Below, in pieces: positions 1,944-25,380 of a stretch of DNA of 37,612 nucleotides. How positions within the stretch are numbered: position 1 is the first letter of the stretch; each line of letters starts with the position of its first letter. This DNA is from Candidatus Woesearchaeota archaeon (GTDB lineage: Archaea; Nanobdellota; Nanobdellia; Pacearchaeales; GW2011-AR1). Below the pieces are notes generated by a model that saw only the letters and a list, made by a program, of their open reading frames with translations, did not search any database and was not told where the DNA came from. The position numbers were made by a program, and so were the translations under genes. The stretch covers positions 1 to 37,612 of the forward strand of contig CAZFLO010000003.1 in assembly GCA_964519005.1 (NCBI GenBank), in the 5' to 3' direction.

Positions 1944-2756
1944 CCTCTTCCAAAAACCTTTCTTTCCCAAAACTTCAAATTCAACCCTCAACCGAATTTT
2001 ATAAGGAGCAATTTCCCCAATATCTTTTGTATTCGTTATCTTAATTTTCTTTCCAGCTTTTTTGGCTTCTACTTTAATTTCTTCAATCAATTTTCCCTTA
2101 TCTTCTAACTTGCAAAAACCATGATAATAAATCCTAGTTCCAGGTTTAGAAATCATAAATGCTTCTTTCAAAAAAGTATCTTGCAAATTAGGGCGAGTCA
2201 TCAAAATCAAATCATAACTTTTCCCTTCTTCAACCAAACGAGGAGCAATCTTTTTTATATCCCCGGGAACCAATTCAATTTTATCTTTTAACTTATTCCT
2301 CAAAATATTTTTCTCAGCATAAATGTTTGCCTTCCTATTTAATTCATTAGAATAAATTTTCGAAACTGAAACATTTTTTGCAATAACAATAGGAAAAGGA
2401 GCAACTCCCGCACACATAACAAAAACCTCATCTTTGGGTTTAACTAATTCGCAAACTTCCTTTCTCTCATTTGCAAGCCTAGGAGAAAAATAAGTTTCAT
2501 CAACATTAAACCTAAAAACACAACCATTTTCTCGATATAAAACTTCTTTTGTTTTTTCTCCCGCGAGAACTTTTGTTTCTTGTTTCCTAAGCCTCCCACT
2601 AAATTTCTTTGATTTTTCCAAAACAGTTTTAATCGCTTTATTCTTCTCCAAAATTTCTTCCGCAAATTCTTTTTTAGCATTCTTTTTGATATCATCAGAA
2701 AAATTAACAATAGCTACATTCCCCAAGACACTATATGATCTTTGTTTCATAAACAT
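1920..2756 (-). CDS. trm5: tRNA (guanine37-N1)-methyltransferase, Trm5/TYW2 (Met-10) family
   Basis: 278-aa ORF. SAM-binding stretch VFVMCAGVAPFPIVIA and SNELN (NPPY-equivalent) match the Trm5/Taw2 pattern as I recall it. Confidence 0.7.
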   Translation of the reverse strand: MFMKQRSYSVLGNVAIVNFSDDIKKNAKKEFAEEILEKNKAIKTVLEKSKKFSGRLRKQETKVLAGEKTKEVLYRENGCVFRFNVDETYFSPRLANERKEVCELVKPKDEVFVMCAGVAPFPIVIAKNVSVSKIYSNELNRKANIYAEKNILRNKLKDKIELVPGDIKKIAPRLVEEGKSYDLILMTRPNLQDTFLKEAFMISKPGTRIYYHGFCKLEDKGKLIEEIKVEAKKAGKKIKITNTKDIGEIAPYKIRLRVEFEVLGKKGFWKRLFGFKIF

Positions 2757-2844
2757 AAAATGATAATCAAGTTTAAATTGGTTTTGAAAAATTTAACAAT
2801 AAAGAAATACCATATTTTATAAAAATCAAATCTCTTTTATTAAA

Positions 2845-3168
2845 ATGAAAAAAACACCTATTGAAAAAATGAAAAAATTAAATATTTCTAAAAATGAAAA
2901 AATAAGATATTTGGAAATAGAGAAAGAAAAAATTTCTCAAAAATACGATAAAATAATTAAAAAAATAATTGAACTAAGACAAGAAAAATACTTTTTGGAA
3001 ACATCAAAAAAGAACGCACAAAAAATTGAAAAGAAAATAAATTCAAATTTAGAAAAGAGATACAAATACGAAAAAGAAAATGTCCTAAAAGAAGAAATGA
3101 TTCTAGAAATAGAAAACAAATTATTTGAATTGAAAAATAATTCCTACAAGAATTTGGTAAAACCATGA
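2845..3168 (+). CDS. Lys/Glu-rich coiled-coil hypothetical protein
   Basis: 107-aa ORF. TATA-like attttataaaaatc about 25 nt upstream of the ATG. Low-complexity K/E composition. Confidence 0.45.
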   Translation: MKKTPIEKMKKLNISKNEKIRYLEIEKEKISQKYDKIIKKIIELRQEKYFLETSKKNAQKIEKKINSNLEKRYKYEKENVLKEEMILEIENKLFELKNNSYKNLVKP

Positions 3169-3320
3169 AATTTTAGGCTAACTTCCTACAGGAAATTCCA
3201 CAAATAACTGGGCGGGTCATCGAACTTTAGTTCGATTTCATAGCGGGAATTTCTAAAATTTACAAACTAAAAAAATTTCACCAAAATCACTTACAAAACC
3301 TTATAAAAACATAATTCCTT

Positions 3321-4475
3321 ATGAGATATATGAAAAAAAGAGGCAACATTCTAGCCATTTTTGTTGGACTGATATTACTCCCACTCATTTCAGCATATGG
3401 GGGATATTCAACATTTTCAATAAAACAATTTCTAAGTGTAGAAACTTTCCTTTTAGCAATATTATTCTTCATCGTCCTCTTCGTCACAAGAAAAGCTATG
3501 ACAAAACTTTTTCCAAATTCCGAAGCTGCAGCAATTTTGATCGCATTAGTCGTTTCAATAATGGCCGTGTATGGTTTAACAATTGCAAATTTCTCTCTTG
3601 AAGATTTCCTCTATTCAATAGGAATAAATGAATTATTTTTAGAAAACGTGGCCCCTTGGGCAGTTTTACTATTGGCTGCAATAATCCTCTGGAAATTTGG
3701 ATTTGGAGGAATGACAATGATATTTGGGGGAGTATTCATAATTTTGGGTTTATTGGGAATGGCAACAAATTCCGAAGTTGTTTATAATTGGGAATATTCA
3801 TTAGGAATCGGTTTTGCATTACTAATTTTAGGATTGATAATAAAAAAGAAATTTTCAAAAATCCGCATTGGAAAAATAAAAGGTCCCAATTTAGGTAAAA
3901 TTAAAAATCCTTTGAAGGGAGGAAGATTAGCAGTATTTGTGGAAGGAAGAAGAATAACTTACCCTTCTTTCACCAAAAACGTAATGACAATTGTTCCAGG
4001 AAAAAAAGTTAAAATTTCAGTAGAAAACATTGGAAGCAGAGATTTAAAATGGAAAATGATAACTGGAAAAGGATTAGGCGTTAGCAACATAACTCGAGAT
4101 ATTTTAGGCCCAAGAAAATCTGAAGAAGTACAAATAAAATCAGATTCGGTAAATAAAACAAAATTTTTCAAGGTAAGTGCAATAGGAAGAATAGGAAGAG
4201 TATCTCGTCAAAAAATAACGGTAATTGTTTTGCCAGGGGGAACAAAGTCACCTCCTCCAAAAACTAATACTCCAAGACCAACAAGATCAAGATCAAATCA
4301 AGATCTTCAAGACAAATATGATTATTATGTTGGATTGGTTAAAGCTGTGCAAAAAAAGAACAAAGGAAAAATTCCTAAATTAGGAACACCCGAAGGAGAT
4401 TTAAGACACCGACATATTCAAGCAATAAAAACAATAGAAAATACTGCTAAAAAACAAAGATATAAATTAAAATAA
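3321..4475 (+). CDS. Multi-pass membrane protein with a C-terminal soluble beta-rich domain and basic tail
   Basis: 384-aa ORF. Several hydrophobic segments in the first ~170 aa, a Pro-rich linker PPPKTNTPRPTRSRS and a basic C-terminus. Start may be the ATG at 3330, which has better TATA spacing. Confidence 0.6.
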   Translation: MRYMKKRGNILAIFVGLILLPLISAYGGYSTFSIKQFLSVETFLLAILFFIVLFVTRKAMTKLFPNSEAAAILIALVVSIMAVYGLTIANFSLEDFLYSIGINELFLENVAPWAVLLLAAIILWKFGFGGMTMIFGGVFIILGLLGMATNSEVVYNWEYSLGIGFALLILGLIIKKKFSKIRIGKIKGPNLGKIKNPLKGGRLAVFVEGRRITYPSFTKNVMTIVPGKKVKISVENIGSRDLKWKMITGKGLGVSNITRDILGPRKSEEVQIKSDSVNKTKFFKVSAIGRIGRVSRQKITVIVLPGGTKSPPPKTNTPRPTRSRSNQDLQDKYDYYVGLVKAVQKKNKGKIPKLGTPEGDLRHRHIQAIKTIENTAKKQRYKLK

Positions 4476-24149: not shown

Positions 24150-24458
24150 ATGGAATTTTGCCCAAAATGCGGTGCCGTATTAATGACTAAAGTAAAAAAT
24201 AGTTCTTGCCCCAGGTGTAAGTATGTAAAAAAAGGAGCAGTTGACTTGATATCAAAAGAAAAAATAGATGATAAAATTGAGATTCCCATATTAAAAAAAG
24301 CATTAGGTTCGACAGCCCCAGTAGTAAATGAAAAATGTCCTGAATGTGGACATGGAAAAGCATATTTCTGGACAATCCAAACAAGATCAAGTGATGAATC
24401 AGAAACAAAATTCTTCAAATGTGTTAAATGTGGGCACACTAGAAGAGATTACGATTAA
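24150..24458 (+). CDS. tfs: Transcription factor S / RNA polymerase subunit M
   Basis: 102 aa. N-terminal CPKCG...CPRC ribbon. C-terminal CPECG...QTRSSDES...CVKCG TFIIS-type ribbon with an acidic loop. Confidence 0.88.
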   Translation: MEFCPKCGAVLMTKVKNSSCPRCKYVKKGAVDLISKEKIDDKIEIPILKKALGSTAPVVNEKCPECGHGKAYFWTIQTRSSDESETKFFKCVKCGHTRRDYD

Positions 24459-24528: not shown

Positions 24529-24870
24529 ATGGAAACAATAAGAATAAAATCTGTAGTTGCAAGCTACTTTTCAATAAACAAAGAAAAAACAAAAATAGAT
24601 TTCAAAACATTAAGTGAATTCAAAAAAGGCTTAGAAAATAAATTTAGAAAAAATAATACTCCAACATACATACAATATTATCGAGACAACTTAATTGATT
24701 TTGCACAAAGATATTCAGAATCTTTTGAAGTAGATTTTGATTCCAAAAAAATAAAATACCTTAATGATAAAAACAATGTTTATCTTGTAAATTCAATCCC
24801 TCACAGCTTAAAAGAATTATACTCAAAATTATTTTTAGAAATCAATTCTGAAATCAATTCCAAAGATTAA
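24529..24870 (+). CDS. Hypothetical protein
   Basis: 113-aa ORF with TATA-like aaaagtataattaac 26 nt upstream. No domain recognised. Confidence 0.45.
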   Translation: METIRIKSVVASYFSINKEKTKIDFKTLSEFKKGLENKFRKNNTPTYIQYYRDNLIDFAQRYSESFEVDFDSKKIKYLNDKNNVYLVNSIPHSLKELYSKLFLEINSEINSKD

Positions 24871-24906
24871 CAAACTTTTTAAAGAAAAAATATCTCTCTA
24901 ATTTAG

Positions 24907-24921
24907 TATGGCTTCGTAGCT
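24907..24921 (+). repeat. Duplicate of the tRNA-Lys 5' end (3 flanking nt plus positions 1-12)
   Basis: tatggcttcgtagct is identical to 24980-24994. A TATA-like tttttaaag lies about 28-30 nt upstream of this copy, not of the full tRNA. Confidence 0.85.
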
Positions 24922-24982
24922 TCCCAAGGGATGACCTCATTACATGAGGCCTCAGCCCAAAGAGGCTTCGCTCCATCAATAT

Positions 24983-25057
24983 GGCTTCGTAGCTCAGCCT
25001 GGTCAGAGCACATGACTCTTAATCATGGTGTCGTGGGTTCAAATCCCATCGGGGCCA
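24983..25057 (+). tRNA. tRNA-Lys (anticodon CTT)
   Basis: Hand-folded cloverleaf. Acceptor GGCTTCG/CGGGGCC (two G-U pairs), D arm GCTC/GAGC, anticodon arm CATGA-CTCTTAA-TCATG, T arm GTGGG-TTCAAAT-CCCAT, discriminator A. No encoded CCA. Confidence 0.9.
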
Positions 25058-25132
25058 TATTCTATTTAGATTTGAAGCCTTGGGTTTAGTACAAAGTGTA
25101 AACTTTAGTGCTACGGAGAACGAAGTGACCCA

Positions 25133-25156
25133 CAAATCCCATCGGGGCCATATTCT
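25133..25156 (+). repeat. Partial copy of the tRNA-Lys 3' end plus trailer (24 nt)
   Basis: caaatcccatcggggccatattct is identical to 25040-25063 (T-loop position 56 to discriminator, plus 6 nt of trailer). Confidence 0.9.
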
Positions 25157-25232
25157 TAAACCCAGGACACAGTGTCGTGTGAAAATTTTGACTTTGATTA
25201 ATGCCGAAGGCCAAAAGTCAAGATTTAAATAA

Positions 25233-25254
25233 GTTCAAATCCCATCGGGGCCAT
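25233..25254 (+). repeat. Partial copy of the tRNA-Lys 3' end (22 nt)
   Basis: gttcaaatcccatcggggccat is identical to 25037-25058. Upstream gtgtcgtg (25172-25179) matches the tRNA variable loop and T-stem (25028-35), separated by an insert of about 53 nt that contains a hairpin. Confidence 0.9.
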
Positions 25255-25334
25255 TTTTATTTTTCTAAAGAAAAATTTGTTTAAGAGATTTTCACCCCAG
25301 AGGGTTTCCTGGCATGACCTATATTTTTATGTAT

Positions 25335-25354
25335 GTTTCAAATCCCTTCGAGCC
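25335..25354 (+). repeat. Degenerate fourth copy of the tRNA 3' end
   Basis: gtttcaaatcccttcgagcc. Upstream catgacc recalls the anticodon stem, so this looks like a decayed tRNA fragment. Confidence 0.5.
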
Positions 25355-25380
25355 TTTCTTCTTATAAAATTTATAAAAAA

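Follow-up and report, generated by a model that had tools for sequence, protein, structure and literature searches.

The tRNA-Lys(CUU) locus of a Candidatus Woesearchaeota archaeon raises the question of why one intact tRNA gene is surrounded by broken copies of its own ends. The window, that is, the whole stretch of DNA that was analysed (37,612 nucleotides (nt); CAZFLO010000003.1 of assembly GCA_964519005.1), is contig C3 of a 0.92-Mb genome in 111 contigs with approximately 30% GC, labelled G000. At this locus every partial tRNA copy is flanked or interrupted by a conserved, non-coding hairpin module, of which there are three types, E, I2 and I3. The answer favoured here, with modest confidence, is that the locus consists of one working tRNA-Lys(CUU) gene lying in the DNA-level debris of small tRNA-targeting selfish insertion modules and tRNA-end duplications, which are non-functional as tRNA parts. 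The modules look like an undescribed tRNA-seeking selfish DNA element, and not like an intron or a split tRNA. In the literature searched, no description of modules E, I2 or I3 was found, the nearest accounts being duplications of attachment (att) sites (PMC9897764) and the fragment model for tRNA-Thr of Caldiarchaeum (PMC3293823).

The intact tRNA-Lys(CUU) gene (24983-25057, forward strand as are all features below; ARAGORN, and 66.5 bits over the full Rfam model RF00005) is the sole functional gene of the region and the only tRNA detected by ARAGORN across the window, and it has a single partial copy of its 5' end upstream and three of its 3' end downstream. A preliminary description of the locus had stated that the first 12 nt of the tRNA and 3 upstream nt recur 73 nt upstream, and this was borne out, since the 15-mer TATGGCTTCGTAGCT was found at exactly two sites in the window, 24907-24921 and 24980-24994 (approximately 0.01 expected by chance). 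The upstream copy (24907-24921) is composed of TAT and tRNA positions 1-12 (GGCTTCGTAGCT). At T12^C13 of this copy lies module E (24922-24952, 31 nt), made up of TCCCAAGGGATGAC, a hairpin (24935-24949, CCTCAT-TAC-ATGAGG) and a GCCT end, so that the layout reads TCCCAnGGGATGAC-hairpin-GCCT followed by D-loop remnants, and deletion of 24922-24952 gives back GGCTTCGTAGCTCAGCC, which equals tRNA positions 1-17. The rest of the upstream module (24953-24982), delimited in an alignment of 13 modules, contains the D-loop remnant CAGCC, CAAAGAG, a conserved RCTTCGCT (24964-24972) and a spacer ending in TAT. In the upstream module of another genome (G442) the D-loop remnant extends to tRNA position 23. 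Similarity of the upstream-module tail to a decayed tRNA 3' end was not significant (mean z 0.27), and the exact acceptor 3' strand is present in both tRNA-Ile upstream modules of G000. A short open reading frame (ORF) starting at an ATG within E (24931-25089) was rejected on inspection for absence of conservation between loci.

The TATA-like box TTTTTAAA (24876-24883), read from the sequence as the native tRNA promoter, now stands ahead of the upstream partial copy, with 34 nt between the box and the G of the copy. In relatives without an upstream copy, the same promoter block aaacttttt(a/t)aaa precedes tRNA +1 by 34-37 nt, and because the spacings match (34 nt before the copy, against approximately 37 nt before tRNA +1 in relatives), the promoter is taken to serve the upstream copy, as the preliminary description had proposed from the placement of the box.

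Downstream, the three recurrences of the tRNA 3' end that had been described were all recovered, with spacings of 93, 103 and 103 nt, and the repeats at both ends greatly exceed chance expectation. The 3' unit 2 (I2 type, 25058-25156), defined by homologous units at other tRNAs, contains a T-arm-like palindrome GATTTGAAGCC-TT-GGGTT (25069-25086), an I2 insert (25087-25132) with the hairpin GTACAAAGT/ACTTTAGTGC and a ACGGAGAACGAAGTGACCCA box, and a terminal copy (25133-25156, C56 to the 3' end and ATATTCT) that is identical at 24/24 positions to 25040-25063, including 6 flanking nt. Homologues of I2 were observed in the same genome as tandem units behind tRNA-His and as a unit near tRNA-Leu, and in genomes of the same genus behind Leu, Ile, Gln, Phe and Lys tRNAs. 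The 3' unit 3 (I3 type, 25157-25264), with a homologous unit behind tRNA-Lys(UUU) of genome G006, contains a palindromic junction GACAC-A-GTGTC (25166-25176), a 52-nt insert (25180-25231) with the hairpin AAATTTTGACTTT/AAAGTCAAGATTT (25183-25226), and the copy GTTCAAATCCCATCGGGGCCAT (25233-25254), identical to the tRNA 3' end at 22/22 positions; the variable-loop/T-stem piece GTGTCGTG (sense copy, 25172-25179) and the hairpin insert attributed to this unit earlier are thus both present. The T5AT5 stretch that ends unit 3 probably stops transcription, and the 3' flank of the unit is identical to the 3' flank of tRNA-Lys(UUU) of the same genome. The 3' unit 4 (25265-25356) is a decayed E-type unit, recognised by full-length alignment to the intact E-type unit behind tRNA-Lys(UUU) on contig C56; its parts are the box GAGATTTTCACC (25285-25296), GGGTT (25302-25306), a broken E beginning with TCCTGGCATGACC (25307-25337) and the degenerate end copy TCAAATCCCTTCGAGCC (25338-25354). 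Unit 4 is the oldest and most degenerate copy, and the outward drop in identity to the tRNA (24/24, 22/22, degenerate) is the result expected of serial events at the gene. Each 3' unit opens with a palindromic junction rc(X)-X, in which the first bases of the partial tRNA stand in antisense (the reverse complement, rc) and then in sense; GACAC-A-GTGTC and GAAGCC-TT-GGGTT are the examples in the window, and GAACCTGC-TC-GCAGGTT is one from elsewhere.

The same build was observed at other tRNA genes of G000, where at least 8 of the 27 tRNA loci are flanked by partial copies of their own ends (seven found by exact 11-mers, tRNA-Arg(CCU) by its module). The tRNA-Lys(UUU) gene, split across the ends of contigs C24 and C56, has the same upstream build, and in its downstream unit a partial T arm is interrupted by E between T55 and C56. 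The intron-bearing tRNA-Ile(UAU) on contig C13 has two tandem 89-nt upstream E units and a downstream E unit, which are built on the Ile and not on the Lys sequence, so that each copy matches its own tRNA.

Several further observations were made at these loci. The intron of tRNA-Ile(UAU) (C13 5541-6040, L043) was missed by ARAGORN when run without -i; three upstream units were present there, one of another type and two E units, followed by an E-type 3' unit, and the first 11 nt of the Ile units are able to pair with GCTTCAAGATC at the unit end. A second small repeat family with an E-like layout (CCCAAGGGCACGAGAACC, hairpin, GG) was observed behind tRNA-Arg(CCU) and in other genomes (C43 201-300, L045, L072 and L170), and a third type of tRNA leader, with the D-loop palindrome CGGYCTGGT-nn-ACCAGSC followed by TTCGC, at C50 6000-6045, C13 5541-5656 and L027. 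Seven contigs (C16, C19, C24, C26, C36, C50 and C56) start or end within a tRNA gene, and runs of N occur in the His and Leu arrays; this assembly seems to break mainly at tRNA flanks, and contig ends within tRNA genes fit population variation at those sites.

To follow E beyond this genome, the pattern CCCAnrGGrATGAC, 8-26 nt, GCCTCA was searched in 301 genomes from 122 genera of the order, with the reversed pattern as control. Matches were found in 17/301 genomes and 14/122 genera, all of one family, and the reversed control gave 0. In a scan of 185,579 species (one genome each), scattered single bacterial matches and a cluster in metagenome-assembled genomes (MAGs) of Woesearchaeota type were observed; the non-chance matches among these species are Woesearchaeota/Pacearchaeota MAGs, and those E-bearing relatives that have a name in the species collection are listed as MAGs of Woesearchaeota, Pacearchaeota or 'Nanoarchaeota'. 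The comparison of the locus in relatives found the repeat modules at tRNAs of other genomes, patchily, and the window locus is a well-preserved example of a family-wide phenomenon and not an ordinary att scar.

The positions taken by E in tRNA-like loops were always T^C, in the D arm (12/13), the T loop (55/56) and, in a single case, the anticodon loop, and the junction sequences were fixed (GCT^CAG; GTT^CAA or GTT^CGA; TTT^CGG). Upstream modules, made up of tRNA positions 1-12, E, D-loop remnants to position 23, RCTTCGCT and a spacer, precede Lys-CUU, Lys-UUU, Ile-UAU and Asn tRNAs. Downstream modules, made up of a T-arm-like box, the T-stem 5' strand and TT, E, and C56 to the 3' end with approximately 6 nt more, follow Lys, Ile, Leu-CAA, Leu-UAG, Arg-UCG, Arg-CCU, Gly-GCC, Gly-CCC, Gly-UCC, Trp, Gln and Tyr tRNAs. 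Other arrangements were also observed. Pseudo-copies of tRNA-Gly(GCC) that are almost full-length carry E in the T loop and stand before a promoter and the intact gene (L136, L190), and a tRNA-Arg(UCG) 5' half in front of the intact gene has E in its anticodon loop (L178). There are also a mini-gene of the form [1-12][E][55-76] (L203) and E-like units away from tRNAs, among them a 36-nt tandem triplet. In all cases E-bearing copies were found beside an intact copy or within a dispensable tRNA, never in a required tRNA copy.

Evidence for spread at the DNA level came from comparison of orthologous loci, which differ within a genus in module presence or absence, most of them lacking modules, and from identical tandem copies of units. 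An identical hairpin, CTCAACTTTGTTGAG, was found at different tRNAs in four genera. The hairpins of upstream modules are closer within a genome than between orthologous loci (Lys/Lys/Ile in G000, and both modules in G017 and in G279), and one hairpin pair of G000 differs by a compensatory double change.

As for its structure, the flanks of E are invariant, and the hairpin sequence differs in nearly every copy yet always pairs. The 5' arm of the hairpin is pyrimidine-rich and the composition is strand-asymmetric (pairs CG 91, TA 49, AT 28, GC 7 and GT 5). With RNAalifold, the variable hairpin was recovered from 13 upstream modules with compensatory changes at four pairs, and the invariant GGGAUGA was paired with the following UCAGCCY, a CC bulge being left out; in T-loop copies GGGAUGA can be predicted to pair with UCAAAUCCC or UCGAUUCC, a prediction made over positions that are all invariant. 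The two ends of E (TCCCA... and ...GCCT) are not inverted repeats, and comparison of filled with empty sites revealed no target duplication at the boundaries. Inspection of E for a k-turn, a box C/D motif and a hammerhead gave consensus mismatches, and there was no Rfam match.

On the favoured reading, the modules would spread as DNA, through an enzyme acting in trans or through gene conversion via conserved tRNA sequence. Insertions would persist only where a duplicated tRNA end preserves the intact gene, and later events would displace older copies outward. Transcription would run from approximately 24910 to the T-run at 25254-25264, the 73-nt leader would be cut by RNase P and the trailer by RNase Z, and the copies would add nothing to the mature tRNA. 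RNase P RNA was detected in this genome at 137.6 bits (also in 24/25 relatives), so the 73-nt leader is simply removable. A Nanoarchaeum-like system of leaderless transcription that lacks RNase P, which would force use of the upstream copy, was rejected because of this RNA. An ORF of 113 aa (24529-24870), for which Pfam and PHROG searches gave no match, separates the TFS gene (24150-24458) from the tRNA promoter; since the TFS stop directly precedes the tRNA-Lys(CUU) promoter in five relatives, the ORF is a genome-specific insertion.

Several points weigh against this reading. No enzyme is linked to the modules, and no viral or plasmid source was found in IMG/VR. E has neither terminal inverted repeats nor a target duplication of its own, so the link between E insertion and tRNA-end duplication is unexplained. 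The rc(X)-X junction that opens every 3' unit lacks explanation in the favoured model as well, and the invariant flanks together with the compensatory hairpin changes could equally fit selection on RNA.

The search for a moving enzyme included the IS200/IS605 TnpA, which is present on contig C74 and whose family occurs in 26% of the genomes of the order. TnpA was found in 8/17 E-positive and 69/284 other genomes (odds ratio 2.8, p = 0.047), a weak enrichment, and no E-like motif was observed in the flanks of six IS200/IS605 loci (that on C74 and five of the twelve loci of relatives). TnpA is therefore not favoured as the mobilising enzyme, given the weak statistical link and the IS ends unlike E at the loci read. 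On C74 (1-2090), the TnpA gene (193 aa) and two ORFs lie between two direct copies of an approximately 70-nt repeat, whose 51-nt core was found nowhere else in the genome.

A bolder reading is put forward only tentatively. Together with its sister modules, E may provide the cis sites for a hitherto unrecognised site-specific insertion system of Woesearchaeota-type archaea, which would recognise a folded single strand of DNA or RNA, act on tRNA loops at their T^C step and generate or exploit the tRNA-end duplication, whereby the gene would survive. The same modules would then be possible raw material of the unusual D-arm and T-loop introns and the split tRNA genes of DPANN archaea.

Among the alternatives, plain att scars survive best, although they are unlikely. 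Here, viruses or plasmids bearing an integrase would have integrated repeatedly into the 3' end, and also the 5' end, of the tRNA gene, the partial copies would be attR or attL, and the spacers would be the remains of deletions. Of the explanations offered in the preliminary description, stacked att scars come nearest to the pattern observed, namely direct repeats of the tRNA termini that extend a few nt beyond the gene end, a 3' junction in the T loop, the classic crossover place, and outward decay as in serial integration, and a pattern of this kind is backed by PMC9897764 and PMC3293823. The genome also encodes three tyrosine recombinases (PF00589), on contigs C1, C35 and C15. The one on C15, a 379-aa integrase, starts 42 nt downstream of an intron-containing tRNA-Glu(CUC) (region 2119-3445); an integrase directly behind this tRNA is the usual signature of an integrated element, indicating that tRNA-targeting integration does occur in this genome. 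A second copy of the tRNA-Glu(CUC) end was not found in the assembly.

What does not stand is the origin of the intervals. The 68-80-nt spacers belong to conserved module families (modules of 30-80 nt with fixed junctions) with equal boundaries across tRNAs and genera, which random deletion would not yield. Identical tandem units exist, and E also occurs in D loops, in anticodon loops and outside tRNAs. As had been noted before, no integrase is nearby, all three tyrosine recombinases being on other contigs and none being found on C3 or near the modules in the PF00589 search; the segments bounded by the repeats measure only 61-80 nt. The att-like core that was expected in viruses or plasmids was absent from IMG/VR (0 matches for the tRNA-Lys 3' core), as was E, whose pattern gave 4 chance matches only.

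Somewhat less probable still is that the modules are functional RNAs, that is, leader and trailer modules co-transcribed with the tRNA and freed by RNase P and RNase Z to act as structured small RNAs or as cis elements controlling how the tRNA folds, is processed or terminates. Transcription of the upstream module is unavoidable, as it is placed between the sole promoter and the gene, and the invariant E flanks with a covarying hairpin across genera, the strand asymmetry of hairpin composition, the complementarity of GGGAUGA to the tRNA sequence after it and the antisense T-arm boxes in the trailers are all consistent with a role as RNA. Against such a role, the distribution is patchy, most orthologous loci within a genus being without modules, copy number varies, and decayed copies such as unit 4 occur. 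In addition, a T5AT5 run separates tRNA-Lys(UUU) from its downstream unit, E is also found in arrays and in contexts away from tRNAs, and a match to Rfam is missing.

It is improbable to a far greater degree that the copies are exons of a tRNA with non-canonical introns or of split or alternative tRNAs, joined to the gene body by the splicing endonuclease. The restoration of tRNA positions 1-17 upon removal of E speaks for it, as does the tRNA-Thr(GGU) of genome G226, an otherwise perfect gene into which E is inserted at 12/13 and again at 55/56. This tRNA was found with E at both positions also in G463 and G469, and no second tRNA-Thr(GGU) copy was detectable, which at first made E look like an obligatory intron. 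That candidate was weakened by the tRNA set of G226 (L094-L123), in which only UNN anticodons serve the four-codon boxes of Ala, Pro, Thr, Val, Ser and Leu, glycine having GCC also. Four-codon boxes read by UNN tRNAs alone form a minimal decoding set of a type known from mitochondria and mollicutes. As UNN tRNAs read the four-codon boxes, tRNA-Thr(GGU) is dispensable in G226, and its counterparts are defective, with a mismatched T stem in G463 and a chimeric end from the 3' part of another tRNA in G469; the E-bearing copies therefore look like relics.

The structural test gave the same answer. A scanner for the bulge-helix-bulge (BHB) motif (helix, 3-nt bulge, 4-bp helix, 3-nt bulge, helix) recovered the three introns of the genome (in tRNA-Ile, tRNA-Gly and tRNA-Glu), but in 24900-25380 no BHB or relaxed BHB was found that would excise E or the 73-nt leader or join the upstream copy in register. 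Weak BHB-like motifs in this interval numbered 51, against 36±8 in shuffles. The leader/trailer helix noted in the preliminary description does exist (11 bp with a single 3-nt bulge, AGA; duplex energy above that of mononucleotide shuffles, p approximately 0.002), but it is no BHB motif, conservation of the helix is missing at the paralogous Lys(UUU) locus, and the pairing follows from the sense and antisense tRNA-like pieces within the repeat modules. With no in-register BHB and an RNase P RNA able to remove the leader, the idea of an unusual intron or long-leader precursor is not supported. The proposal of split or alternative tRNA pieces fails likewise, since a contiguous tRNA-Lys(CUU) gene is present and the partial pieces lack an anticodon arm. 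Relaxed motifs are reportedly accepted by DPANN endonucleases (PMC5829648), which also counts in favour of the intron or split-gene explanation.

A collapsed or chimeric repeat join, which the paralogous Lys(UUU) locus broken over two contigs, the several contigs ending within tRNA genes and the N runs in the His and Leu arrays might suggest, can practically be set aside, given that 12 kb separate the locus from the closest end of its contig and that an equal build is present in more than 20 independent assemblies.

The locus and its relatives bear on a wider problem. Annotations of DPANN archaea are notoriously incomplete for tRNA genes, and the origin of multi-intron, split and permuted tRNA genes is a long-standing question, for which the precise landing of modules in tRNA loops, together with duplicated ends, offers a testable route from an intact to an interrupted gene. 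For annotation, partial copies of this kind can be miscalled as tRNAs or att sites, and they break assemblies at tRNA genes and lengthen pre-tRNA leaders.

Of the known systems, archaeal tRNA att repeats (SSV1-type and pNOB8-type integrases; PMC9897764, PMC3293823) are alike in having an intact tRNA with direct partial copies of its terminus, repeats that reach slightly beyond the gene end, a 3' junction in the T loop and older copies further out. The present locus differs in having no integrase and no kb-scale element, in spacers formed by 30-80-nt conserved modules and in a 31-nt hairpin module inside the repeat.

Repetitive extragenic palindromes (REP/REPIN), miniature inverted-repeat transposable elements (MITEs) and IS200/IS605-derived palindromes are also short, non-coding, hairpin-forming, multi-copy, patchy between relatives and able to form tandem arrays. 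E matches the REP/MITE type as a short non-coding hairpin unit in multiple copies with presence/absence differences among close relatives, and it resembles IS200/IS605 in insertion at a short specific step without target duplication. The terminal inverted repeats and target-site duplication of MITEs were not observed for E when filled and empty sites were compared. Unlike REP and MITE elements, the modules have a tRNA-like loop as target and are always associated with duplicated tRNA ends, their hairpin sequence is free and their flanks are fixed, and no cognate transposase was found.

The non-canonical, 'transposed' tRNA introns of Thermoproteales, with multi-intron or split tRNAs, were reportedly described by Fujishima et al. 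2010. Like the present modules, they place related inserts in more than one non-canonical part of the tRNA, the D arm and the T loop among them, and two inserts in one gene; at the loci studied here there is no bulge-helix-bulge, the inserts lie in pseudo-copies or a dispensable gene, and the functional gene is uninterrupted.

The tRNA-Thr(GGU) locus of Caldiarchaeum subterraneum (Sugahara 2012, PMC3293823) likewise has a 5' tRNA fragment upstream of the full gene and an insert gained within tRNA sequence in the same event. In Caldiarchaeum a 1.8-kb recombinase-encoding insertion lies between fragment and gene, whereas at the tRNA-Lys(CUU) locus the two are separated by 61 nt of non-coding module.

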